A stretch of DNA of 24,000 bases, from positions 1 through 24,000 of the IMG/VR virus record IMGVR_UViG_3300017782_000219; one strand, written 5' to 3'. Under the pieces are notes generated by a model, which was not told the origin of the DNA, made no database searches, and was given only the letters and a program-made list of their open reading frames with translations. A program made the position numbers and the translations under genes. Positions 1 through 13,142 of the stretch are shown piece after piece. The DNA comes from a virus. Lineage: Duplodnaviria > Caudoviricetes. Position 1 is the stretch's first letter; each line of letters begins with the position of its first letter.

Positions 1-450
1 TGAGTGCAGCTCGATCACCTCGGCGACGCGTGCGCGGCGCTTGACGCGCTTGTCGCGGATCGAGGTAGGATCGCCGAGGATGCCACACACGATGCGGCGG
101 CCTTGCACAAGCTGCCAGTGCCAGCCCGCGACGATCAGGAATACGCGGTCGGCGGTGCGCTGCTTGACGGTGTGCTTGAGCCACGCCGCCAACGTCGGGC
201 CTTTGCTGCGGCTCAGCGCGAGGCCGAAGCTTTCGCGCGTGCTGTCGACGCCGCACATTTCGAGGGAGCGCGTCACCTCCCAGACAGAAGAGCCTTTGAT
301 AGACTTGCGCCCGCTGACGTGGCGGATCAGGCGCGCAGCCTCGCCAGTGGTCATGCCTGTGATGGCGCTGATGACGGCGGGGCCGCAGTAGCGGTTTTTA
401 TCCGCTTTGGTTTCGCCGTGGTTGATTGATTTGATTTTAAGTTTAGTCAT
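1..450 (-). CDS. Hypothetical protein with C39/papain-like peptidase-type motifs (3'-truncated by window edge; not in ORF track)
   Basis: Manual translation from ATG at 450, preceded by GGGAGGG RBS: MTKLKIKSINHGETKADKNRYCGPAVISAITG...FLIVAGWHWQLVQG... Open to the window edge. YCGPA and HW motifs resemble a Cys-His dyad. Confidence 0.75.
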   Translation of the reverse strand, partial: MTKLKIKSINHGETKADKNRYCGPAVISAITGMTTGEAARLIRHVSGRKSIKGSSVWEVTRSLEMCGVDSTRESFGLALSRSKGPTLAAWLKHTVKQRTADRVFLIVAGWHWQLVQGRRIVCGILGDPTSIRDKRVKRRARVAEVIELHS

Positions 451-490
451 GTTGCCCTCCCGAGCGTTGCGGAGCCGCAGCCCCTGTTGA

Positions 491-679
491 TTATTTTGGC
501 AGTTCAACTTTGTGCGGTGCGTAATGTCCTTCGGTGCCGCGTACATCATTGAAGCACTTGATGCGTTTGGCGGTGAAGCCTAATACTTTGCCAGTCACCC
601 ACATTTCATCATCAGCGAAGCTAGACATATTGATCCAAACTACTTGGCCAATTTTCAAGTTTTTTGCTGTGTCTGTCAT
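491..679 (-). CDS. Small hypothetical protein, SH3/KOW-like beta barrel
   Basis: ORF track 491..691. Start moved to ATG 679 because GGAGGA lies just upstream. The LKIGQVVW...W..GKV pattern is typical of small SH3-like phage proteins. Confidence 0.7.
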   Translation of the reverse strand: MTDTAKNLKIGQVVWINMSSFADDEMWVTGKVLGFTAKRIKCFNDVRGTEGHYAPHKVELPK

Positions 680-698
680 ATCTTCCTCCATTGCTTAT

Positions 699-733
699 AC
701 CTTAAGTTAACACAATGTTAACATAGATACAAC
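699..733 (-). promoter_or_regulatory. Candidate leftward sigma70-type promoter
   Basis: Minus strand reads TTGTAT-N17-TAACTT in an AT-rich intergenic region upstream of ATG 679. Confidence 0.5.
706..722. promoter_or_regulatory. CtrA-type box TTAA-N7-TTAAC within palindrome GTTAACA-CAA-TGTTAAC
   Basis: GTTAACACAATGTTAAC matches the established alphaproteobacterial CtrA consensus on both strands and overlaps the leftward promoter spacer and -10. Confidence 0.6.
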
Positions 734-750
734 CCCCTAAATGCAGCTAT

Positions 751-779
751 TTGCATTTTTTCTGAAAAAAGTTTACCGT
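751..779 (+). promoter_or_regulatory. Candidate rightward promoter for the sRNA
   Basis: TTGCAT (751-756), 17 nt spacer, TACCGT (774-779). Overlapped by inverted repeats at 739-758 and 756-770. Confidence 0.5.
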
Positions 780-785
780 GATCTT

Positions 786-895
786 GCTCAGAGTGGTTTC
801 GACGTCCACGTCTGTACCTCAAGCGGGTTTTCCTCCCTGTGCCCGCGCAACTTGAACCCCGCGAACGCCCTCCCAGCGCGCGGGGTTCCTTTTTG
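786..895 (+). ncRNA. Candidate three-hairpin small RNA with CCUCCC anti-SD loops
   Basis: Hairpins at 789-814, 823-846 and 854-888. CCTCCC lies in the loops at 832-837 and 869-874, a T-tract follows at 890-894, and there is no credible ORF. Confidence 0.6.
854..894 (+). terminator. Rho-independent terminator (3' hairpin of candidate sRNA)
   Basis: 10-bp stem GAACCCCGCG/CGCGGGGTTC followed by CTTTTT. Confidence 0.7.
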
Positions 896-904
896 GCGTT
901 TTAA

Positions 905-913
905 TGGTATTAT
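905..913 (+). promoter_or_regulatory. Candidate extended -10 promoter for the late operon
   Basis: TGgTATTAT about 25 nt upstream of ATG 939. No convincing -35. Confidence 0.4.
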
Positions 914-938
914 GTAGCGAGTTATTATGGAGATTTTT

Positions 939-1091
939 ATGCCAAATGTAGATGGGAAAACGTACCCGTACACAGCCGCAGGCAAAAAGGCTGCAGCCGC
1001 TGCGATGAAAAAGAAAAAGAAGTCGAAGCCGAAGAAGCCGAAGCAGTACGGCACAACGACGAAGCGGACGATGACCGCCCGCAAGAAGTAA
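939..1091 (+). CDS. 50-aa Lys-rich basic protein (not in ORF track)
   Basis: GGAG RBS at 929-932. MPNVDGKTYPYTAAGKKAAAAAMKKKKKSKPKKPKQYGTTTKRTMTARKK. Stop overlaps the next ATG (TAATG). Confidence 0.8.
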   Translation: MPNVDGKTYPYTAAGKKAAAAAMKKKKKSKPKKPKQYGTTTKRTMTARKK

Positions 1092-1276
1092 TGTGGACGG
1101 CGCTGCTTTTGCTTTGCAGCGTTGATGGCGGTTGTTTTTCGTTTGGCAGCCCCGTGATGCAGAGCGAGAGCCAGTGCATACAATCCATACCGAGCGGGCT
1201 CGAATACGCGCGGCAGATGTTTCCTGCATACCGCGCAATGGATTATCAGTGCGTCCAGTGGGGCGAAGGAGCGTAG
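1091..1276 (+). CDS. Small Cys-containing hypothetical protein with hydrophobic N-terminus
   Basis: Abuts both neighbours. MWTALLLLCSVDGGC..., four Cys. Confidence 0.7.
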   Translation: MWTALLLLCSVDGGCFSFGSPVMQSESQCIQSIPSGLEYARQMFPAYRAMDYQCVQWGEGA

Positions 1277-1636
1277 ATGGCGACGGCGAAGAAGACCAAC
1301 CCGAAGCTATGGGAAAAGTCAAAGGCGCGAGCCAAGGCGAAGATGGGCGGGCACAGTGCGCGTGCTATGCAGCTCGCCACAAAGTATTACAAGGAAGCCG
1401 GCGGCGGTTATTCTGGCTCAAAGAGCAGCGGCAACAGCTTGTCCAAGTGGAGCAAGCAGGATTGGGGATATACGGGCGAAAAGAAGAAAAGCCGTTATCT
1501 GCCCAAATCAGCGCGCAAAAGCCTGTCCGCCGGCGAGAAGGCAGCCGGATCTCGCGCCAAGAATAAGGCGACCAGCTCCGGCAAGAAGCGCGCGTCCTAC
1601 ACGGCTGCAGAAAAACGCGCAGTGAAGAGGGCGTAA
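1277..1636 (+). CDS. Basic phage protein, DUF5872-like
   Basis: AAGGAG RBS. The HSARAMQLA..YK..GGGY.G...L.KW.KQDW pattern is recalled from this family. Confidence 0.8.
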   Translation: MATAKKTNPKLWEKSKARAKAKMGGHSARAMQLATKYYKEAGGGYSGSKSSGNSLSKWSKQDWGYTGEKKKSRYLPKSARKSLSAGEKAAGSRAKNKATSSGKKRASYTAAEKRAVKRA

Positions 1637-1887
1637 TGGCGACCAAACGCAAATCAGGCCCAAGCCTATCTGTTGGGCGCGGCGAGAAGCTTTCGGTGAA
1701 GCGTGGCGGCGGTTTGACCGCCAAGGGGCGCGCGAAGTACAACAAGGCCACCGGCAGCAAGTTAAAAGCGCCGGCGCCCAACCCCAAAACGAAATCAGAA
1801 AAAGCGCGTAAAAAGTCGTTCTGCGCCCGCTCACGCGGCTGGACGGGTGAGCGCGGCAAGGCGGCACGCAGAAGGTGGAAGTGTTAA
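1636..1887 (+). CDS. Basic phage protein, DUF6321-like
   Basis: GGLTAKGRAKYN..TGSKLKAP...RKKSFCAR...RRRWKC pattern. TAATG coupling. Confidence 0.8.
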   Translation: MATKRKSGPSLSVGRGEKLSVKRGGGLTAKGRAKYNKATGSKLKAPAPNPKTKSEKARKKSFCARSRGWTGERGKAARRRWKC

Positions 1888-1888
1888 G

Positions 1889-2344
1889 ATGAATACGATG
1901 GAGCTGAGAGCAGAATATGCCCGTCGCACTGGCGACGATAAAAACGCTTTTGCCATGCGCCAAGACGGGCCGGAGGGGTTTCTGTACTCCGACGCTACGA
2001 TTGCGCGCGCTCTTGACGAGTTTTCACGCCTTTACGGCGATCCATACACCGCTGACGCCAATCAGGCGGTGGCAGCGCAATTATTTGAGGGAATGGGCCC
2101 GCGTGTCGGCGCATCCCTGTCGCAATCGGCCTCTATGATGCCCACGCCGCAAAAATCTGCCATGCGGTCGCGAGGTTTGTTTGACGATGCCATGGAGCTG
2201 GCGAGGCAGGAAGATTACGGCCAATCCGCCAAATTTGGCGCGCGCGCTGTCGGAGAGGCATTGCTTGGAGATCAGCGCAGTCGTATAGGCGGCATGACCG
2301 GCATCATGTCAGGTTTACTTGATTATTTTAGGAACAGAAAATGA
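1889..2344 (+). CDS. Hypothetical protein (possible virion-internal protein)
   Basis: ORF track 1847..2344. Start moved to ATG 1889, just after the upstream stop. ATGA overlap with the next gene. Ends GLLDYFRNRK. Confidence 0.7.
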   Translation: MNTMELRAEYARRTGDDKNAFAMRQDGPEGFLYSDATIARALDEFSRLYGDPYTADANQAVAAQLFEGMGPRVGASLSQSASMMPTPQKSAMRSRGLFDDAMELARQEDYGQSAKFGARAVGEALLGDQRSRIGGMTGIMSGLLDYFRNRK

Positions 2345-3435
2345 GCATACTCGACGACATCATCAGAGCGGCAATGCGCGGCAGATACCCAGAAGTGATG
2401 CCGCCTATTCTCAAGTTTGATAAGAAAAAGGGCAAAGAATATCTCGCTAAGGAGCTTGGCCCAGAAGCAAAACAGGTAAAGAAAGCCCGCGATGCTGCGG
2501 TCAAACGGGTTAACGCCGGTGACTATGACCCGTATTTTGATGTTTCCGAGAGGTTTCCGGTCAATAGGCAAAACTACCCAATTGCTTCGCAGCCAAATCA
2601 AACGCTGCAGGTTTTGCCCGCCAAGCAGGAAACCATTGAAAAATATAGAGAAATTTACAACAACCCAGAAAGCAAAAAGCGGCTGCAGGAGGCGTATCTA
2701 AAAGGATTGGATATTCCCGAGACGCAAGGTTGGTATTTTATGGGGCAGCTCGAAAAAGAGTTTATCGATGAATATGGCCCAGAGCAGGGTCGTAAGATGT
2801 TTACGGCGATGTTCGCTGACCCGATGGCGGCTTGGACTGGCGGCGCAGATCCAACGGCAAACCTGCTTATGGCCACATATGACAATTTCAGAAAGGTGCA
2901 GGGCGCAAACCTGCCGGAAAAAGCTTTTGACTTTCCATATCCTATTGGCGGCAGGTTTTTGGGAACAAATGCCGCTCAAGCCAGAAAGGTTGAGGCTGCC
3001 GGAGAGATAAACCCCAGAACCAACCCAAAGCGGTTCAATTTTTCAACAAATTTTCAAGGCGCCGCTGACCGAGCCACCATGGACGAGCAGATGATGACAA
3101 TGGGATACGGCATGAACGTACCAACCCCCAATACATATGGCGCCGTTGAAGAAGTGGCTGTGGAGCTGGCCGATAAAAATCGCACCACGCCTATGGGGTT
3201 TCAAGAGGTTGCATGGCATGGCGGATCAGGAAAAATCGGGAAGCCGATGATCCAGTTTGTAAACGAAGCCATTGAGCGCACAAGCTCAGTGACGGGCATG
3301 AAGCCGCAAGACGTCGTGAAAGGAATGGTGCGCGGGTCAATCCCCATATTTGGGCTGGGAGCTGCGGGGATGGTACAGCAAAATCAGAACCAATCTGACA
3401 TATTAAATTATTTTCAAGACAGGGGCATCCAATGA
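2341..3435 (+). CDS. Hypothetical protein with putative HhH-GPD glycosylase-like (DUF7178-like) domain
   Basis: 364 aa. Motif order WY...K..NF..N..G....TMD.....Y......A......P..FQ..AW resembles phage HhH-like domains. Function is inferred. Confidence 0.65.
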   Translation: MSILDDIIRAAMRGRYPEVMPPILKFDKKKGKEYLAKELGPEAKQVKKARDAAVKRVNAGDYDPYFDVSERFPVNRQNYPIASQPNQTLQVLPAKQETIEKYREIYNNPESKKRLQEAYLKGLDIPETQGWYFMGQLEKEFIDEYGPEQGRKMFTAMFADPMAAWTGGADPTANLLMATYDNFRKVQGANLPEKAFDFPYPIGGRFLGTNAAQARKVEAAGEINPRTNPKRFNFSTNFQGAADRATMDEQMMTMGYGMNVPTPNTYGAVEEVAVELADKNRTTPMGFQEVAWHGGSGKIGKPMIQFVNEAIERTSSVTGMKPQDVVKGMVRGSIPIFGLGAAGMVQQNQNQSDILNYFQDRGIQ

Positions 3436-3596
3436 TCACGTTGACGTATGAAATGAAAATGAACGATTTTGGCATGTCTTTATTTAAGGACAACCCGTCT
3501 TTTGACATAGAAATCATCAGTAAGGTCGAAGACGGATCATTCGAGGGTGGGTATCACGTTAAAGTTACAGAAGAGCGGGATGAAGATGCAGAATAG
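3432..3596 (+). CDS. 54-aa acidic protein (not in ORF track)
   Basis: ATGA overlap with the upstream gene. MITLTYEMKMNDFGMSLFKDNPSFDIEIISKVEDGSFEGGYHVKVTEERDEDAE exactly fills the gap. Confidence 0.65.
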   Translation: MITLTYEMKMNDFGMSLFKDNPSFDIEIISKVEDGSFEGGYHVKVTEERDEDAE

Positions 3597-4599
3597 GTAC
3601 TACACGCAGCCGGACGGTTCTGTTGTCATCCAAGACGCTGTGACAGGAAAGGTAACCGTTACCAACCCGCCAGCGCGTCTTTCCGCTGCGCCGGCTGAAG
3701 GGTTTATTGGCCGCGCACGTCAGGGGCTAACGTCTGGCCTGCAGAGAACGGGGCTTTCGCCTTACATGGCGCGCCGCACCAGCGAAGGGATCTTAGGCAG
3801 GCCATTTGCGCGGCCACAATCTGAGCTTCCATTTTTAGAAACTCTCGGCGTTGCCAACGCAACACCGATGGTTGCTGGAAGCTTGATGGCGGGAGAGGCT
3901 TTGACGCAGGCGGCGCAGGGCAATCGCGGCGCTGCGCTTGGTAATGCGGCACTAAGCATTTTGGATATTGCCGGAAGCGGTGCCGGCTTAAAGGCGGCAT
4001 ATAGGAACGCGCGTCAATCTCCGGAGCTTGTTGATATACCTCAGACGCCAGAGGGCAGAAAATATTTTCAAGGGATTTTGGCTGATGCTCAAGACAGTCA
4101 GGGGCCGCTTGGATCTCAGGTTAGCGTTTATGAGCCAGAAGCTTATAAAGGTATGAGCATGACGGCTTCCCCGAATGCTGACGCTGGTTATGCAATTTCA
4201 CCAGAAGGAGAAATTGTTTCGCTGGTTAAGAGTAAAGACTCCAAGATGAAAGGTTTTGCCGGCAAAGCATTGAAGCGAGCTAAAGATGACGGCGGCGTAT
4301 TTTTGAACGCGTTTGACACTGAGCTTACCAATCTTTACGGCAAAGCTGGGTTTAAACCAGTATCTCGCGTTGGGTTTGACGAAGAAATGTTTAGATCCGA
4401 AATCGGAGACGAGGCCGTAGATGAATTTATGAAGGCCAATGCTAGATTTAACGAAGGCAGGCCGGATCTTGTATTTATGGTGCGCGATCCTGAGTTTACA
4501 CCCAGAGCAATGAGCGGGCAGGGTGGCCAGAAAGCTGAATATGACGAGGCTTATGATATATTGCTGCGAGAAATGAAGAGGCTTGGGTACAATGACTAA
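3580..4599 (+). CDS. Protein with C-terminal GNAT-like acetyltransferase domain (phage polyvalent-protein type)
   Basis: GEIVSLVK...GFAGKALKRA...LNAFDTELTNLYGKAGF...RPDLVFM fits GNAT motifs A/B. Ala/Gly-rich N-terminal half. Start at 3580 or 3586. Confidence 0.7.
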   Translation: MKMQNRYYTQPDGSVVIQDAVTGKVTVTNPPARLSAAPAEGFIGRARQGLTSGLQRTGLSPYMARRTSEGILGRPFARPQSELPFLETLGVANATPMVAGSLMAGEALTQAAQGNRGAALGNAALSILDIAGSGAGLKAAYRNARQSPELVDIPQTPEGRKYFQGILADAQDSQGPLGSQVSVYEPEAYKGMSMTASPNADAGYAISPEGEIVSLVKSKDSKMKGFAGKALKRAKDDGGVFLNAFDTELTNLYGKAGFKPVSRVGFDEEMFRSEIGDEAVDEFMKANARFNEGRPDLVFMVRDPEFTPRAMSGQGGQKAEYDEAYDILLREMKRLGYND

Positions 4600-4681
4600 A
4601 GTTAGAGATTTTAAGGCGCAGTGCATTGCGGCATTAAAGAAAAAGTCAGACCAGCGAAAGGTTGATGAAAATGAAAAATGA
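4592..4681 (+). CDS. Possible 29-aa peptide
   Basis: MTKVRDFKAQCIAALKKKSDQRKVDENEK overlaps the GNAT stop and the portal start. Short, with no strong RBS. Confidence 0.35.
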   Translation: MTKVRDFKAQCIAALKKKSDQRKVDENEK

Positions 4682-6794
4682 GATCAACGATCTGGTCAAT
4701 CAGGTGGAGCAGCAGCTCAACCCCAACATAATGAGCGATGACGAGCTGCAGGGCATTGTCGGCAAGGAGATCGACGACGCGATTGACTACATCGACAACA
4801 CCATATCGCCCGTAAGGGCGGAGGCCACCGAGTATTATCGCGGGCAACCGTTTGGCGACGAAGAGGACGGGCGCAGCCAAGTGGTTAGCATGGACGTGCG
4901 CGATACCGTACAAGCCATCCTGCCGTCGCTGATGCGGATCTTTCACGGCACCGACCGCACCGTCGAATACGCGCCGCAGGGGCCCGAAGACGTGCAGGCG
5001 GCGGAGCAAGCGACCGACTATGCCAATTTTATCATCAACCGCGACAACAACGGCTTTTTAGCCATGCATTCAGCGTTTAAGGATGCGCTTATCCGCAAGG
5101 TTGGCGTTTTAAAGTGTTGGTGGGATGACCAGACCACGATTGACGCCTACAATTACACCGGCCTCGACGATAACGCGCTGGCGGCTCTTGCCGCAGATCC
5201 GGACGCGATGATCACCGTGCAGGCGTCCATGCCGTTTGGCGAGCCCATGATCGACCCAGTGACCGGAATGCAAATGCCGATGCCGATGGTGCATGATGTG
5301 CGTGTGGAATACACGCGCCCCGATGGCCGCGTTAAGCTGGAGGCTGTGCCGCCCGAGGAGCTGCTAATTTCGCGTGAGGCAAAATCTATCGAAGAAGCCG
5401 ATTACGTCGCTCACAGGCGCATTGTGACCGTCTCCGAGCTGGTTGCGATGGGATATGATTACGACGACGTTTCCAGCATGTCATCTGCTTATGATGATAT
5501 GAACACCAACGTCGAGCGGTACACGCGAAACCCTGCGCTAACCAACGAGATGAACGAGCGCAACGACCCAGCGATGAAAAAGGTTCTTTACGTCGAAAAC
5601 TATATCCGCGTTGATTACGACGGCGACGGCATTGCGGAGCTGCGCAAAATCTGCACGGCGGGCGACGGCAACAAGATACTGAACAACGAGCCAATTGACA
5701 TGGCGCCCTTCGCCACGTTCTGCCCAGACCCAGAGCCACACGATTTCTTCGGTATTAGCGTGGCGGACACCGTCATGGACATCCAGCGGATCAAGTCTGT
5801 CATCATGCGTAACACGCTGGATAGCTTGGCCATGTCCATACACCCCCGCGTGGCTGTCACAGAGGGCATGGTTAATTTAGACGATGTTATGAATACAGAG
5901 GTCGGCAGCATCATCCGCCAGCGCCAAGCCGGTCAGGTGCAGCCGCTTTCGATGCCATTTGTTGGCCGCGAGGCGTTCCCCGTTCTGCAATACATGGATC
6001 AGGTCAAAGAGGCCCGCACAGGCATCTCAAAGGCGTCTCAGGGGCTAGACGCCAACGTTCTGCAGTCTACCACCGCCAGCGCCGTTGCAGCGACTGTGAG
6101 CGCCGCACAGCAACACATTGAGCTGATCGCGCGCATATTTGCTGAGACAGGCATGAAGCGTTTGTATCAGATCGTGCTGCACTTGATCACCACGCATCAG
6201 GATGCGCCGCGCATGGTTCGCTTGCTCAATAAATTTGTGCCGATAGACCCAAGGGCGTGGGATAGTAAGATGGATGTGTCGATCACTGTTGCTTTGGGCC
6301 GTGGCACAGACACAGAGCGCATGATGATGCTTCGCCAAATTGGCGAAATGCAGAAGGATGCTATGAAGACAATGGGCCCGCAAAATCCGCTAACCGACAT
6401 CACTAAGCTCAGCAACACGCTGAAATCAATGACAGAGTTGGCCGGTTTCAAGGACACATCTCAATTCTGGAGCAACCCTGCAGAGTTTAGACCACCGCCA
6501 AAGCAGGAAAAGCCAGACGTCAACGAGATGCTGATACAAGTGCAGATCCAAGATATCCAAGCAGACATTCAGAAAAAAGCCGCGCAGTTGCAGCTTGATC
6601 GTGAAAAGATGCAGATGGAGGATGACCGCAAGCGTGACGAGCTGGAGGCTGAGCTGTTTGTAAAGGCCGAAGAGATGAAGGCCAAATATGGCGCGCAGCT
6701 TAACGTCGAGCAGATCCGATCCGATCTGGCCATCAACCGCGAGGTTCTCAAGGCGCAGGCAGACGTGATCAAGGAGGGCGCGCGTGAAGACTAA
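4671..6794 (+). CDS. Portal protein (P22/SU10-like podoviral type)
   Basis: About 707 aa. YY.G.PFG.E..GRS.VVS.DVRD, DALIRKVGV.K.WWD, P.PH.FFG.S and a C-terminal coiled coil. Lies upstream of scaffold and capsid genes. Confidence 0.92.
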   Translation: MKNEINDLVNQVEQQLNPNIMSDDELQGIVGKEIDDAIDYIDNTISPVRAEATEYYRGQPFGDEEDGRSQVVSMDVRDTVQAILPSLMRIFHGTDRTVEYAPQGPEDVQAAEQATDYANFIINRDNNGFLAMHSAFKDALIRKVGVLKCWWDDQTTIDAYNYTGLDDNALAALAADPDAMITVQASMPFGEPMIDPVTGMQMPMPMVHDVRVEYTRPDGRVKLEAVPPEELLISREAKSIEEADYVAHRRIVTVSELVAMGYDYDDVSSMSSAYDDMNTNVERYTRNPALTNEMNERNDPAMKKVLYVENYIRVDYDGDGIAELRKICTAGDGNKILNNEPIDMAPFATFCPDPEPHDFFGISVADTVMDIQRIKSVIMRNTLDSLAMSIHPRVAVTEGMVNLDDVMNTEVGSIIRQRQAGQVQPLSMPFVGREAFPVLQYMDQVKEARTGISKASQGLDANVLQSTTASAVAATVSAAQQHIELIARIFAETGMKRLYQIVLHLITTHQDAPRMVRLLNKFVPIDPRAWDSKMDVSITVALGRGTDTERMMMLRQIGEMQKDAMKTMGPQNPLTDITKLSNTLKSMTELAGFKDTSQFWSNPAEFRPPPKQEKPDVNEMLIQVQIQDIQADIQKKAAQLQLDREKMQMEDDRKRDELEAELFVKAEEMKAKYGAQLNVEQIRSDLAINREVLKAQADVIKEGARED

Positions 6795-7026
6795 GCAGCA
6801 AATAATCGATGATGGCAATGCCGCCGACCGATTGCTGAAAGACACTGATCTGGTGAGGTTTTTCGCCGAGATTGAGCAGGATTGCTGGGGCGAGTTTAAG
6901 GCGACTGGCACCGGCGATGCAGAAGGCCGAGAGGCCATCTATATGAAACTGCGCGGGGTTGATCTGGTTCAGAGATCCCTGCGTGCCATGGTTGACAACG
7001 CGACTATTGAAAAAAAGCAAAAATAG
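6784..7026 (+). CDS. Small conserved head-module protein
   Basis: GTG start with GGAGG RBS. Helical 80-aa protein between portal and scaffold. Confidence 0.75.
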   Translation: MKTKQQIIDDGNAADRLLKDTDLVRFFAEIEQDCWGEFKATGTGDAEGREAIYMKLRGVDLVQRSLRAMVDNATIEKKQK

Positions 7027-7052
7027 ACGCATAATTAAGGAGATTGACGCAA

Positions 7053-8057
7053 ATGTCAGATAGCAACACCCCGCAAGGGATTGGGCTGACCGACGCGCAA
7101 AATGCAATCAGTGCAATGTTTGCACCCCAAGGGGATAATGCAGAAGCGACTGATGCGCTAGAGACCGAAGCTGAAGAGCAATCCGAAGCTGAAGTCGAAA
7201 TGGCTGATGATGAGATCGACAATTCACCTGTCGAAGGATCTGAAGTCGAGCTTGATGACGAGGATGACGCCGACAATTCTGGCGACCAATCCTTCGACAT
7301 ACTGTCCGCGAAAGTGGAGGTAGACGGCGAAGAGATTACGGTCGAAGATTTGAAAAGCGGACATTTAAGGCACCGAGACTATACCCGCAAAACGCAGGAG
7401 CTGGCTGAGATGCGCAAGTCGTATGCAGCGGAAGCCGAAGCGATTGAGCAGGAGCGTGCGCAATATGCTCAACTATTGCCGGCCCTAAGCCAGCAAATTG
7501 AGCAATCGGTACAAGAAGAGCCTGATTGGGATACACTGTATGACACAGACCCCGCGATGGCAGCGAAAGCAGAGCGACAATGGCGAAAGCAACAAGAGCA
7601 AAAGCAAGCTCAATTGCACGCGGTTAGAGCCGAGCAGGCCCGACTGCAGGATCTTCAACAGAAGAAAATGCAGCAAATGGAACAAGAATATTTGGAGCAA
7701 CAGCGCACGGCGCTGCCGGATATTATCCCAGAGTGGCGTGATCAAAAGGTTGCATCCACAGAAGCTGGGCAGATTCGTGACTTTCTTCTTAACGAAGGAT
7801 TTAGCGAACAGGATGTCCAAGGGTTAAAAAACGCAACGTTGGTTAAACTGGCGAGGAAAGCCATGCTTTACGATAGAGGCGAAACGCGTGCTAATGAGGC
7901 TAAAGTGAAGCCGAAGAAAGCGCGTTCCAAAACGTTAAAAGCAGGATCTCGCGGTTCAGTGCCAAAGCCGAAAACTGTGCAGCAAGCGCATATACAAACC
8001 GCGCATCAGACTGGCCGTGTGCGAGACGCAGCGGCTGCAATTAAAACATTGCTGTAA
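7053..8057 (+). CDS. Capsid scaffolding protein
   Basis: Acidic N-terminus, VDGEEITVEDLKSG.LR..DYTRKTQELAE motif, coiled coil, basic C-terminus. AAGGAG RBS before ATG 7053. Confidence 0.88.
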   Translation: MSDSNTPQGIGLTDAQNAISAMFAPQGDNAEATDALETEAEEQSEAEVEMADDEIDNSPVEGSEVELDDEDDADNSGDQSFDILSAKVEVDGEEITVEDLKSGHLRHRDYTRKTQELAEMRKSYAAEAEAIEQERAQYAQLLPALSQQIEQSVQEEPDWDTLYDTDPAMAAKAERQWRKQQEQKQAQLHAVRAEQARLQDLQQKKMQQMEQEYLEQQRTALPDIIPEWRDQKVASTEAGQIRDFLLNEGFSEQDVQGLKNATLVKLARKAMLYDRGETRANEAKVKPKKARSKTLKAGSRGSVPKPKTVQQAHIQTAHQTGRVRDAAAAIKTLL

Positions 8058-8069
8058 TGGAGAAATAAA

Positions 8070-9026
8070 ATGGCAATCGTAGCAAACACCTTTACGTCTT
8101 TTGACGCAAAAGGCATCAGAGAAGAGTTAAGTAATATAATTGCCTCTATCTCGCCCGAAGAGGTGCCTTTCCAAAGTAACGTTGGTTCAGAAAACGTATC
8201 AAACACGTTTTTTGAGTGGCAGACAGATTCACTGGCTGCAACCAGCACAACAGCCGTAATTGACGGTGATGATGTGGCGTCTTTCGACAGCACATCAGCG
8301 ACTACGCGTATCGGAAACTATACGCACATTCGCCGTCGTACATTGATCGTTGCGGACAACTTGGGCTCGCAGGATTTGGCCGGCAGAAACGACGAATTAA
8401 GCTATCAGCTCGCAAAGCGCGGCAAAGAGCTTCGTCGTGATGTAGAAGCGGTCTTGACTGACAATAATGCCCGCGTAGCCGGAAACTCATCTACAGCTCG
8501 CGAGACTGCGGGCTTGGGTGCGTGGATTGCGACCAACACCAACAAAGCTGGTGACGGTACAGATCCGACAGCGGCTGACGGTTCAGACGCTCGTAACGAC
8601 GGAACGCAGCGCGACTTGACCGAAGCGATGGTCAAGGACGTGATGCAGAAGGCGTTTGTGTCTGGCGGCAACCCATCAATCCTGATGGTTGGCCCACACA
8701 ACAAGACTGTTGTGTCAGGCTTTGCCGGTATTGCTGCTCAGCGTTACATGGCGCCAAGCGACAGCCCAACCACAATTATTGGTGCGGCTGACGTGTATAT
8801 GTCAGATTTTGGTACACTTCAGGTTGTGCCAAACCGCTTCCAGCGTGAGCGTGACGCCTTTGTGTTGGACCCAGAATATGCATCAGTATGCTATCTGCGT
8901 CCGATCCAAGCGGTTGATCTCGCCAAAACTGGTGACGCCGAGAAGAAGATGATGATCTGCGAGTTTGGCTTGAAAGTGTCAAACGAAGCGGCTCACGGCG
9001 GCGTGTTCGATCTGAACGTATCGTGA
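8070..9026 (+). CDS. Major capsid protein (DUF5309/SU10-like)
   Basis: GIREELS.II..ISP.E.PF, FEWQTDSLA, R.GNY.HI, LAKTGDAEK. Follows the scaffold gene and precedes a hairpin. Confidence 0.92.
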   Translation: MAIVANTFTSFDAKGIREELSNIIASISPEEVPFQSNVGSENVSNTFFEWQTDSLAATSTTAVIDGDDVASFDSTSATTRIGNYTHIRRRTLIVADNLGSQDLAGRNDELSYQLAKRGKELRRDVEAVLTDNNARVAGNSSTARETAGLGAWIATNTNKAGDGTDPTAADGSDARNDGTQRDLTEAMVKDVMQKAFVSGGNPSILMVGPHNKTVVSGFAGIAAQRYMAPSDSPTTIIGAADVYMSDFGTLQVVPNRFQRERDAFVLDPEYASVCYLRPIQAVDLAKTGDAEKKMMICEFGLKVSNEAAHGGVFDLNVS

Positions 9027-10396: not shown

Positions 10397-11782
10397 ATGG
10401 CCTTGGTAATTGCTGACCGCGTCAAAGAAACAACCACGACAACGTCTACCGGCACCTATACGCTCGCCGGCGCCTCAGACGGCTTCCAGTCGTTTGCAGC
10501 CGTTGGGAACGGGAATACAACTTATTATGCTTGTACAGATGGCAGCTTGTACGAGGTTGGCGTCGGAACATTTACTGCGTCTGGAGCTACGCTTTCGCGC
10601 GACACTATTCTGGAAAGCTCCAACAGCGATAACGCAGTAGATTGGCCGTCCGGCTCAAAAGATATTTTTGTGACCGTGCCGGCTGAAAAGTATTTGGTGC
10701 GTGACGCCAGCGGCAATGTGAGCCTGACAGGCAATCTTACCATCAGCGGCACCGTTGACGGACGCGATGTTGCAGCGGATGGAACAAAGCTCGATGGCAT
10801 AGAGGCCGGCGCTACTGGCGATCAAACTAACGCTGAAATCAGGGCGGCGGTTGAAGCGGCTACTGACAGTAATGTGTTTACAGATGCAGACCATAGCAAA
10901 CTTAACGGCATCGAAGCTGGTGCAACTGGCGATCAAACTAATGCTGAAATCAGAGCGGCAGTAGAAGCAGCAACGGACAGCAATGTTTTTACTGACGCTG
11001 ATCACAGTAAGTTAAATGGCATTGAAGCGGGCGCAACTGGCGATCAAACTAACGCTGAGATTAGAGCGGCGGTAGAGGCTGCAAGTGATAGCAATGTTTT
11101 TACGGATGCCGATCATACAAAGCTTTCTGGGATAGAGGCCAGTGCGGATGTTACCGATACTGGGAATGTTGGGTCAGCTTTAACTGCGTTCTCTACTGGC
11201 ACAGACGCCACAGGTTCTGATCTTATTCCCGTTTATGATGTAAGCGCAGGGGCTTGGGAAAAGCAAACCATCACCAACGCTGCGCTCCAAGGCCCGACAG
11301 GCCCTACTGGGCCAACGGGCCCTCAAGGAAACTCAGTAACCGGCCCAACGGGGCCAACGGGGCCAACGGGCCCTCAAGGCAACTCTATAACTGGCCCTAC
11401 TGGGCCAACGGGGCCAACGGGCCCAACGGGGCCTCAAGGCAACTCTGTCACCGGCCCAACCGGCCCAACGGGCCCAACCGGCCCAACGGGGCCGCAGGGA
11501 AGCGCGGGAAGCACGGGGCCAACGGGCCCAACGGGGCCATCGGGAACGCCTTCCACTACTTATAATGCGGTGGGTTCTTATGTTTTTGCTAGATATGATA
11601 CACAGTTACACGCAGCCTCGACTACGTCAGGTTCAAACTTAAATCCATCCAACGCAGGTAGCGTCACGAATTATCCCATACCATCAGGGTCGGCGTTATC
11701 TGGCACTTGGCGGGCTATGGGTTGGAATAAGGGGCCGTGGTCGACAGGCTCAAATTCAACCCTTTATGTTAGAATATCTTAA
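10397..11782 (+). CDS. Tail fibre protein with 37-aa repeats and collagen-like domain
   Basis: [19 protein letters not shown]-terminal anchor, [17 protein letters not shown] shaft motif, (Gly-Pro-Thr)n tract and GTWRAMG tip. Followed by a chaperone gene. Confidence 0.88.
10787..11140 (+). repeat. Three 111-bp (37-aa) tandem repeats plus partial fourth
   Basis: GGCGATCAAACTAA recurs at 10817, 10928 and 11039. Unit KL(D/N)[22 protein letters not shown](T/S)[10 protein letters not shown](S/T). Confidence 0.95.
11291..11551 (+). repeat. Collagen-like Gly-Pro-Thr repeats
   Basis: GGNCCNACN 9-mers in four blocks separated by GPQGNS(V/I)T. Confidence 0.95.
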
Positions 11783-12599: not shown

Positions 12600-13142
12600 A
12601 TGAGGCAAAATTGGCAAATGTGGTCTGGCGGTTTATCCGATACAGACTTATCAATGATCTTTGCGGAGGCTTCAAGGATCAACACACATACGGCTAAAAC
12701 TTTTAACAACGCGGATGCAAAAACCAGATCAAGTGAAATTAAGTGGTTGACTGGCAATCAATCTATTCAAAATATTCTTTGGGGGTATGTAAAGGCGGCA
12801 AACGAGAACGCATTTCACTGCCAAATAGAAAATATTTGTGATATTCAGTTTACAGAATACCACGCCAATAAAGGTGGTCATTATGATTGGCACATAGACG
12901 TGAACTGGAATGGCGTCTCTGGAAGAGACAGAAAACTAAGCGTTACTGTCCAGCTTTCAGACACAAGCGAATATGAAGGCGGCGACTTTGAGTTTGGAGA
13001 ATGTCTAACGCCAGACGCCTCATCCCGTGTCAAGGGAACTGTATTGGTTTTCCCAAGCTATTTGCAGCATAGAGTTTTGCCTATCACAAGCGGCACGAGA
13101 CGTTCTTTAGTGGCATGGTTTGAGGGGCCAAGGTGGATTTAA
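12600..13142 (+). CDS. 2OG-Fe(II) oxygenase (prolyl-4-hydroxylase/PKHD-like)
   Basis: WHID (HxD), RKLSVTVQLS, YEGG.F, FPSY..HRV.P.TSG.R.SLVAW. Confidence 0.92.
   Translation: MRQNWQMWSGGLSDTDLSMIFAEASRINTHTAKTFNNADAKTRSSEIKWLTGNQSIQNILWGYVKAANENAFHCQIENICDIQFTEYHANKGGHYDWHIDVNWNGVSGRDRKLSVTVQLSDTSEYEGGDFEFGECLTPDASSRVKGTVLVFPSYLQHRVLPITSGTRRSLVAWFEGPRWI

Follow-up and report, generated by a model that had tools for sequence, protein, structure and literature searches.

The locus and its phage

The window analysed here is a virus sequence of 24 kb (24,000 nt) that carries the structural module of a tailed, uncultured marine phage, in which the portal, scaffold and major capsid protein genes were assigned by matches to PHROG 1216, 3927 and 1328. 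A predicted small RNA with its own predicted promoter lies upstream of the structural operon, and a cassette of small ORFs occupies the opposite strand further upstream (Table 1). The major capsid protein shared 52% identity with its counterpart in Sinorhizobium phage phiM5 and less than 60% with that of any cultured phage, and a blastn search of positions 400-1700 against cultured phages gave no match. A near-identical genome of 37.2 kb (G001, CheckV 100%) has the gene order terS, terL, variable divergent cassette of small ORFs, RNA element, structural operon, and in genomes G002-G004 the RNA element directly follows terL, with no divergent cassette. No tyrosine integrase was found in any of five near-complete relatives.

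The phage is a podophage of approximately 36 kb that probably infects Rhodobacteraceae. This is the likely host group because, among cultured phages, the endolysin matched best that of Roseobacter phage CRP-13 (64%), the best match of a tail protein was in an Octadecabacter phage (56%), and the exonuclease came closest to those of Paracoccus and Roseobacter phages. A prophage search for the host, covering 401 Rhodobacteraceae, yielded only two with a capsid match (35-39% identity), and no useful host names were found among the capsid homologues.

Table 1. Coordinates of the features annotated in the window.
Feature	Position	Strand	Basis or remark
Variable divergent cassette of two small ORFs, with starts at 679 and 450 (the latter ORF runs off the end of the window)	1..679	-	candidate targets
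Predicted divergent promoter TTGTAT-17-TAACTT, with palindrome GTTAACACAATGTTAAC at 706-722	704..732	-	read from sequence
Predicted sigma-70-type promoter: TTGCAT (751-756), 17-nt spacer, TACCGT (774-779)	751..779	+	sequence, conservation
Predicted small RNA, about 109 nt	786..894	+	fold, homologues; start placed from the -10 element
Hairpin 1, without anti-Shine-Dalgarno (anti-SD) motif	789..814	+	pair probability about 0.66
Hairpin 2, predicted main seed; loop 829-840 = UUUCCUCCCUGU	823..846	+	pair probability 0.98-1.0
Single-stranded linker with AACUU	847..853	+	matches the ACU(U) preceding the terminator in suhB/SorX-type host RNAs
Hairpin 3, intrinsic-terminator type, with U tail	854..894	+	hairpin 854-888, T run 890-894; pair probability 0.92-1.0; loop 869-875, with second anti-SD motif CCUCCC at 869-874
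TG-n-TATTAT motif, predicted extended -10 promoter of the structural operon	905..913	+	conserved among related loci
Start of structural operon: small basic ORFs, portal (4662-6794), scaffold, major capsid protein (8070-9026)	939..9026	+	PHROG

The two cassette ORFs matched no PHROG or Pfam family. The gene content of the cassette region (1-732, minus strand; 206-715 in G001) differs among near-identical phages, and its promoter block, with the GTTAAC palindrome, is kept in relatives that carry different cassette genes. The structural operon is headed at 939-1887 by a run of very small Lys/Arg-rich ORFs (PHROG 14910 and 10346, unknown function), possibly DNA- or RNA-binding core proteins. Further downstream are a tail-fibre-like ORF at 10397-11782, in which three internal repeats and a collagen-like run of GPT are seen, and, within the tail module, a 2OG-Fe(II) oxygenase (PF13640) at 12600-13142, of which a diverged version occupies the same place in G001.

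Fold, promoter and conservation of the RNA element

Folding of positions 786-895 gave a structure of -41.3 kcal/mol (z -2.68), and equally good folds were obtained for 4 of 200 shuffled sequences. The initial annotation had described three hairpins, two of them exposing CCUCCC in the loop, and this architecture was recovered: the CCTCCC motifs lie at 832-837 and 869-874, and both were unpaired with a probability of 0.99-1.0. Two such exposed motifs occurred in 12 of 300 dinucleotide shuffles, and folding energy did not distinguish between the two strands of the element. Only spurious-looking ORFs cross it, which agrees with the earlier statement that no credible ORF is present, and a mini-ORF on the minus strand was not conserved.

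The promoter named in the initial annotation, TTGCAT-N17-TACCGT, is present, and because its score alone was matched by 26% of random 75-nt phage windows, the assignment is based on conservation. Of the 75 clade A/B loci, 71 have TTGCRT, a spacer of 16-17 nt and TAC..T, and four are cut by contig ends; extraction was anchored on the -10 element and not on the -35 element. The promoter was kept across two unrelated spacer sequences and with either terL or the cassette upstream. A terminator had also been claimed, and a hairpin followed by a T run is indeed predicted; a consensus scanner listed neither this terminator nor the promoter of the RNA. Contigs of four RNA runs cover the flanking genes of relatives and do not extend over 752-970, a result from which absence of a transcript cannot be read.

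A pattern scan of viral contigs returned 80 stretches, comprising 75 homologues in two clades (A and B), one distant RNA (L117) and four matches judged to be chance. Loops 2 and 3 were invariant in 19 aligned clade A/B sequences, and formal covariation within these clades amounted to one compensatory pair (G-C/A-U, hairpin 2 stem). Hairpin 1 differs in sequence between clades A and B and is predicted in both, and RNAalifold did not recover it from the sequence alignment. Pair counts on a model-fitted alignment looked strong and were set aside, as host RNAs were mixed into that alignment and the counts were biased by the fit.

More distant relatives were selected by terL identity (76-85%), and the corresponding slot was located by the TG-n-TATTAT motif and the terminator arm, without use of the loop motif. 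This procedure anchored 65 of 160 loci (some contigs counted twice), which represent 28 distinct sequences; the other 95 loci were not anchorable. CTCCC was present in 25 of the 28 slot sequences (62 of the 65 loci). The RNA has been lost in the remaining three and is thus not essential. All that is left in these loci (L373, L376 and L388) is a terminator remnant with the late-promoter motif, and TG-n-TATTAT lies just behind the terminator arm in all 65 anchored loci, including the three without the RNA. Thirteen lineage representatives, chosen by eye, folded at z -2.9 to -5.2 with differing stems, and each exposed at least one unpaired CUCCC or CUCCU. In most distant lineages the slot RNA has retained CUCCC while its stems have been rewritten. 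Lineage I carries TAGACA-17-TATAAT in front of the slot RNA, and some lineages have poor U tails. Global identities among lineages (52-91%) were dropped as a measure, being inflated by gaps.

A covariance model built on clades A and B alone was run on 61 chosen sources. It matched eight slot RNAs (L392, L377, L357, L403, L393, L380, L365 and L362), missed five others (L353, L360, L369, L374 and L378), and gave no match in any of the three loci that have lost the RNA. In 16 loci at greater distance, the region upstream of the basic gene showed no RNA of this kind. The phage element is real and under selection. A phage-encoded anti-Shine-Dalgarno sRNA gene, as the initial annotation had proposed, is supported in that diverged relatives conserve the promoter, the fold and the loop motifs; no transcript was seen in the four RNA runs.

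L478 (6050-6380; genome G006), L481 (G007) and L584 contain a further hairpin-terminator element, whose terminator loop carries CCUCCC. In lineage H this second element lies at another gene-block boundary, just upstream of a GTTAAC-type early promoter.

Relation to known sRNAs and predicted targets

At gathering level no Rfam family was found in the 24-kb window, and none reached its cut-off for the element. Matches taken at E values up to 10 numbered six and included ar14 (27.2 bits), anti-hemB (23.1 bits) and suhB (15.1 bits, cut-off 41); as no cut-off was reached, the element is treated as a variant and not as a family member. The best score was that with RF02344 (Cuckoo/CcsR/alpha-r14 NfeR1), at 27.2 bits (E 0.006) against a cut-off of 58.8. 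Both RNAs have several hairpins (three in the phage RNA), variable stems and anti-SD loops. Cuckoo RNAs are defined, according to PMC4615179, by CCUCCUCCC in every loop, whereas hairpin 1 of the phage RNA has no motif and CCUCCUCCC was absent from both strands of positions 1-3000. The cuckoo/CcsR model of the initial annotation is therefore not retained. Its other comparison, with AbcR1/2 (alpha-r15), holds for the architecture of about 110-120 nt, three stem-loops and two unpaired anti-SD motifs (PMC7143759), but the element gave no ar15 match at E values up to 10 and has no LsrB-type neighbour.

The closer models, judged from sequence features, are the alpha-r8 (SuhB/MmgR/SisA) and SorX-type RNAs. 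The alpha-r8 family carries the decamer UUUCCUCCCU, followed by ACUU and a Rho-independent terminator (PMC12559287). The exact decamer of this family (SuhB/MmgR/SisA-D, RF00519) is found in loop 2 at 829-838, where it is invariant in clades A and B, and it is likewise followed by AACUU and a predicted terminator. In alpha-r8 RNAs the decamer is an open stretch downstream of a weak hairpin, whereas in the phage RNA hairpin 2 encloses it as an unpaired loop. The phage RNA, which is phage-encoded, also adds a second CCUCCC in the terminator loop, and its neighbours are terL or the cassette and the structural genes instead of the N-formylglutamate amidohydrolase gene usual for alpha-r8. SorX (RF02784) and SorY (RF02651) share with it the core CCUCCCUGU, followed by ACU and a terminator, but neither family matched the phage RNA at E values up to 10. 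Phage lineage H has a SorX-type layout and scored 30.5 bits with the SorX model against a gathering threshold of 46.6. SorX is cut from the 3' UTR of an ompR-type gene (PMC9438474), whereas the phage RNA has no such gene and has its own predicted promoter.

The phage RNA is predicted to work like an alpha-r8, SorX or AbcR RNA without qualifying as a member of these families. Given this likeness to known alphaproteobacterial sRNAs, the earlier description of an undescribed system was too strong. What looks new is the carriage of a host-type sRNA by this phage family. Phage-made, Hfq-linked regulators of host and phage mRNAs include VpdS (VP882), PreS (lambda) and E. coli prophage sRNAs (PMC12197685), and VpdS/PreS-type sRNAs come from temperate phages of Vibrio and enterics (PMC12197685). 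The word 'alphaproteobacteria' has no occurrence in the main text of this 2025 review of phage sRNAs, and the literature covered, which includes few subscription papers, reports no alpha-r8, SorX or cuckoo-type RNA in a phage.

Among 61 Rhodobacteraceae genomes, SorX passed the Rfam cut-off in 44 and suhB in six; among 16 bacterial suhB loci scanned, four passed. An element of the form TTCCTCCCTGT..ACT..CCG terminator was present in 41 of the 61 genomes (control, 1) and had a hairpin-seed-terminator arrangement in the 20 loci inspected (L563-L582). In the six such neighbourhoods scanned it adjoins a HerA-like gene, often divergent, and six scanned elements scored below the suhB, SorX and SorY cut-offs, so this may be a host sRNA that has not yet been named. 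A pattern for the phage arrangement, in which a loop encloses the seed, matched only 2 of 251 Rhodobacteraceae. Loop 2 of the phage RNA is therefore the seed typical of the likely hosts, moved into a hairpin loop, and the terminator loop adds a second motif.

Hfq was found in 39 of 41 Rhodobacteraceae genomes. The complement of the seed was found before an ATG at 74 places, spread over 25 of 31 genomes; the control gave 2. Thirty of these loci were fetched, and 26 had ORFs of at least 40 codons; 12 of the 26 encode transport components, nine of them solute-binding proteins, a share that is given without a background rate, and at least three of the 30 loci are antisense of host sRNAs. SisA represses through the alpha-r8 decamer, which acts on the SD region (PMC12559287), and SuhB, together with Hfq, binds thnR at its SD region (bioRxiv 10.64898/2025.12.09.693200). 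Transporter mRNAs are repressed by SorX (PMC9438474) and by SorY, via takP (PMC4615379), and the anti-SD motifs of AbcR and NfeR1 likewise act on transporter mRNAs, transporters being the targets of AbcR1/2 (PMC7143759).

On the phage side, the ribosome sites of the two cassette ORFs are GGAGG and GGGAGG, with predicted loop 2 duplexes of -14.6 and -16.1 kcal/mol. In genomes G001, G003 and G006, which share genes, hand-picked lists of early and replication genes paired better with the seed than late genes did (p 0.001, 0.004 and 0.012, respectively), and the early/late medians in three genomes were -12.7/-8.1, -11.4/-8.9 and -9.2/-6.7. A reversed seed also separated early from late genes (p 0.016-0.024), as did a generic 16S anti-SD probe (p 0.005-0.046), the motif of which we assumed. 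The early/late gap therefore reflects SD strength and not co-evolved targeting. A role in the early/late switch, suggested in the initial annotation, is compatible with these data and is not demonstrated by them, as early genes simply have stronger SD sites. The plus strand of the window contains no GGGAGG (6.9 expected from shuffles); avoidance of GGGAGG on the structural coding strand as a general trait was rejected, since it fails in G002 and G003.

Proposed function and alternative explanations

We consider it reasonably probable that the element encodes a trans-acting, Hfq-aided anti-SD sRNA that lowers the translation of strong-SD messages, transcription, Hfq use and targets all being predicted features of this proposal. 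It is proposed because known sRNAs with the same seed repress through SD regions and transporter mRNAs, and because the early genes have strong SD sites. A small RNA of about 109 nt would be made from its own host-type promoter, and the loops UUUCCUCCCUGU and CCUCCC would pair, probably with Hfq, with GGGAGG/GGAGG SD sites and so lower translation of the messages concerned. The expected targets are the messages with the strongest sites, namely phage early genes, including the neighbouring divergent cassette, and host uptake genes, chiefly those for periplasmic solute-binding proteins. If the RNA accumulates during infection, ribosomes would shift to late genes with weaker sites, and hairpin 3 would double as a terminator that ends terL read-through before the structural operon.

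A broader reading, which is tentative and which we hold to be rather doubtful, is that alphaproteobacterial phages have repeatedly captured a host anti-SD sRNA module, placed here at the packaging/structural boundary, as a translational timer. In such a timer the seed would be rebuilt lineage by lineage, strong-SD early genes and host transporters would be silenced, and late genes with weak sites would escape. A host-type anti-SD RNA in an abundant marine phage family with no detected integrase would place RNA regulators among the host functions carried by marine phages and would provide a means of ordering early and late translation without a protein. Infection would further be predicted to lower organic-matter uptake in roseobacters. 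The phage sRNAs characterised so far are mostly those of temperate phages of enterics and Vibrio.

It is unlikely that the element is only a terminator or insulator that separates the structural operon from terL (or the cassette), its C-rich loops being a by-product of GC-rich stems. A strong terminator hairpin does follow immediately after terL in G002-G004, relatives without the RNA keep a terminator remnant, and C-rich loops are common in such hairpins: across all viral contigs, the CCCCG...CGGGGTTT hairpin pattern was found about 260 times with CCTCCC and about 170 times with the control CCACCC (1.5x). A terminator does not, however, account for the dedicated promoter kept in two upstream contexts, nor for hairpin 2, whose 12-nt host-type seed has no termination role, and the 25 of 28 slot sequences with CTCCC compare with only 2 of the 11 other terminator-like hairpins of three genomes that have the motif nearby, one of the two being a second RNA-like element. 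We also think it rather improbable that the RNA acts mainly as a competitor, occupying Hfq or displacing host sRNAs of the same seed (or their sponge). It has the seed of the host RNAs and a U-tailed terminator, the phage sRNA VpdS is reported to compete for Hfq (PMC12197685), and alpha-r8 RNAs have a sponge, CrfA (PMC12559287); the loop motifs, besides the tail, are nevertheless conserved and often doubled, as base pairing predicts.

The arrangement of promoter, hairpins and terminator directly upstream of the late genes and on the same strand would also suit a cis-acting leader (an attenuator or antitermination site) gating transcription into the structural operon. This is very unlikely, as no competing antiterminator was found, terminator-free folds cost 14-18 kcal/mol, downstream sequence leaves the fold unchanged, and a separate promoter motif follows the terminator and persists where the RNA is lost. 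Hardly any weight is given to a functional minus strand, on which GGGAGG would serve a mini-ORF as its ribosome site, or GGA loops, presumably resembling the CsrA/Rsm binding consensus, would decoy CsrA/Rsm. In its favour, most homologues have a start codon 8-10 nt behind the motif, and both strands fold equally well. This role fails because the mini-ORF is variable (4, 19-38 or 87 codons) or missing among homologues and because CsrA was found in 0 of 41 Rhodobacteraceae genomes; in addition, host RNAs show the same antisense ATG, it is the plus strand that bears the U tail and the promoter, and the GGGAGG-loop version of the U-tailed terminator hairpin was found 42 times in all viral contigs against about 260, or six times as many, for CCTCCC. 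The idea that the element is left over from host DNA, for example as an attachment site that was copied from an sRNA gene of the host, is similarly far-fetched. In its favour, two further viral contigs (L296 and L318) carry SuhB-type RNAs beside integrases, but the absence of a tyrosine integrase from the five near-complete relatives, the rarity of the seed-in-loop form in Rhodobacteraceae and the maintenance of the element in many lineages with its own promoter all argue against it.

Carriage of such RNAs may extend beyond this phage family, as is suggested by SuhB-type RNAs in unrelated phages. A second scan with the canonical short spacing returned 43 viral stretches, and 4 of 40 scanned passed the suhB cut-off. 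The positions of such viral RNAs vary: L315 has one between terL and portal, L290 one by terS, L304 one among head genes and L314 one after an endolysin region. The RNAs of L296 and L318 are suhB-family members above the Rfam cut-off, and their position beside integrase genes possibly reflects integration into an sRNA gene. In another phage group (L292-L294, L297, L301, L307, L310, L311, L313, L316 and L325), a compact suhB-type RNA, consisting of the decamer, CAACTT and a terminator, lies between a DUF932 gene block and terS, and that of L313 passes the Rfam suhB cut-off.
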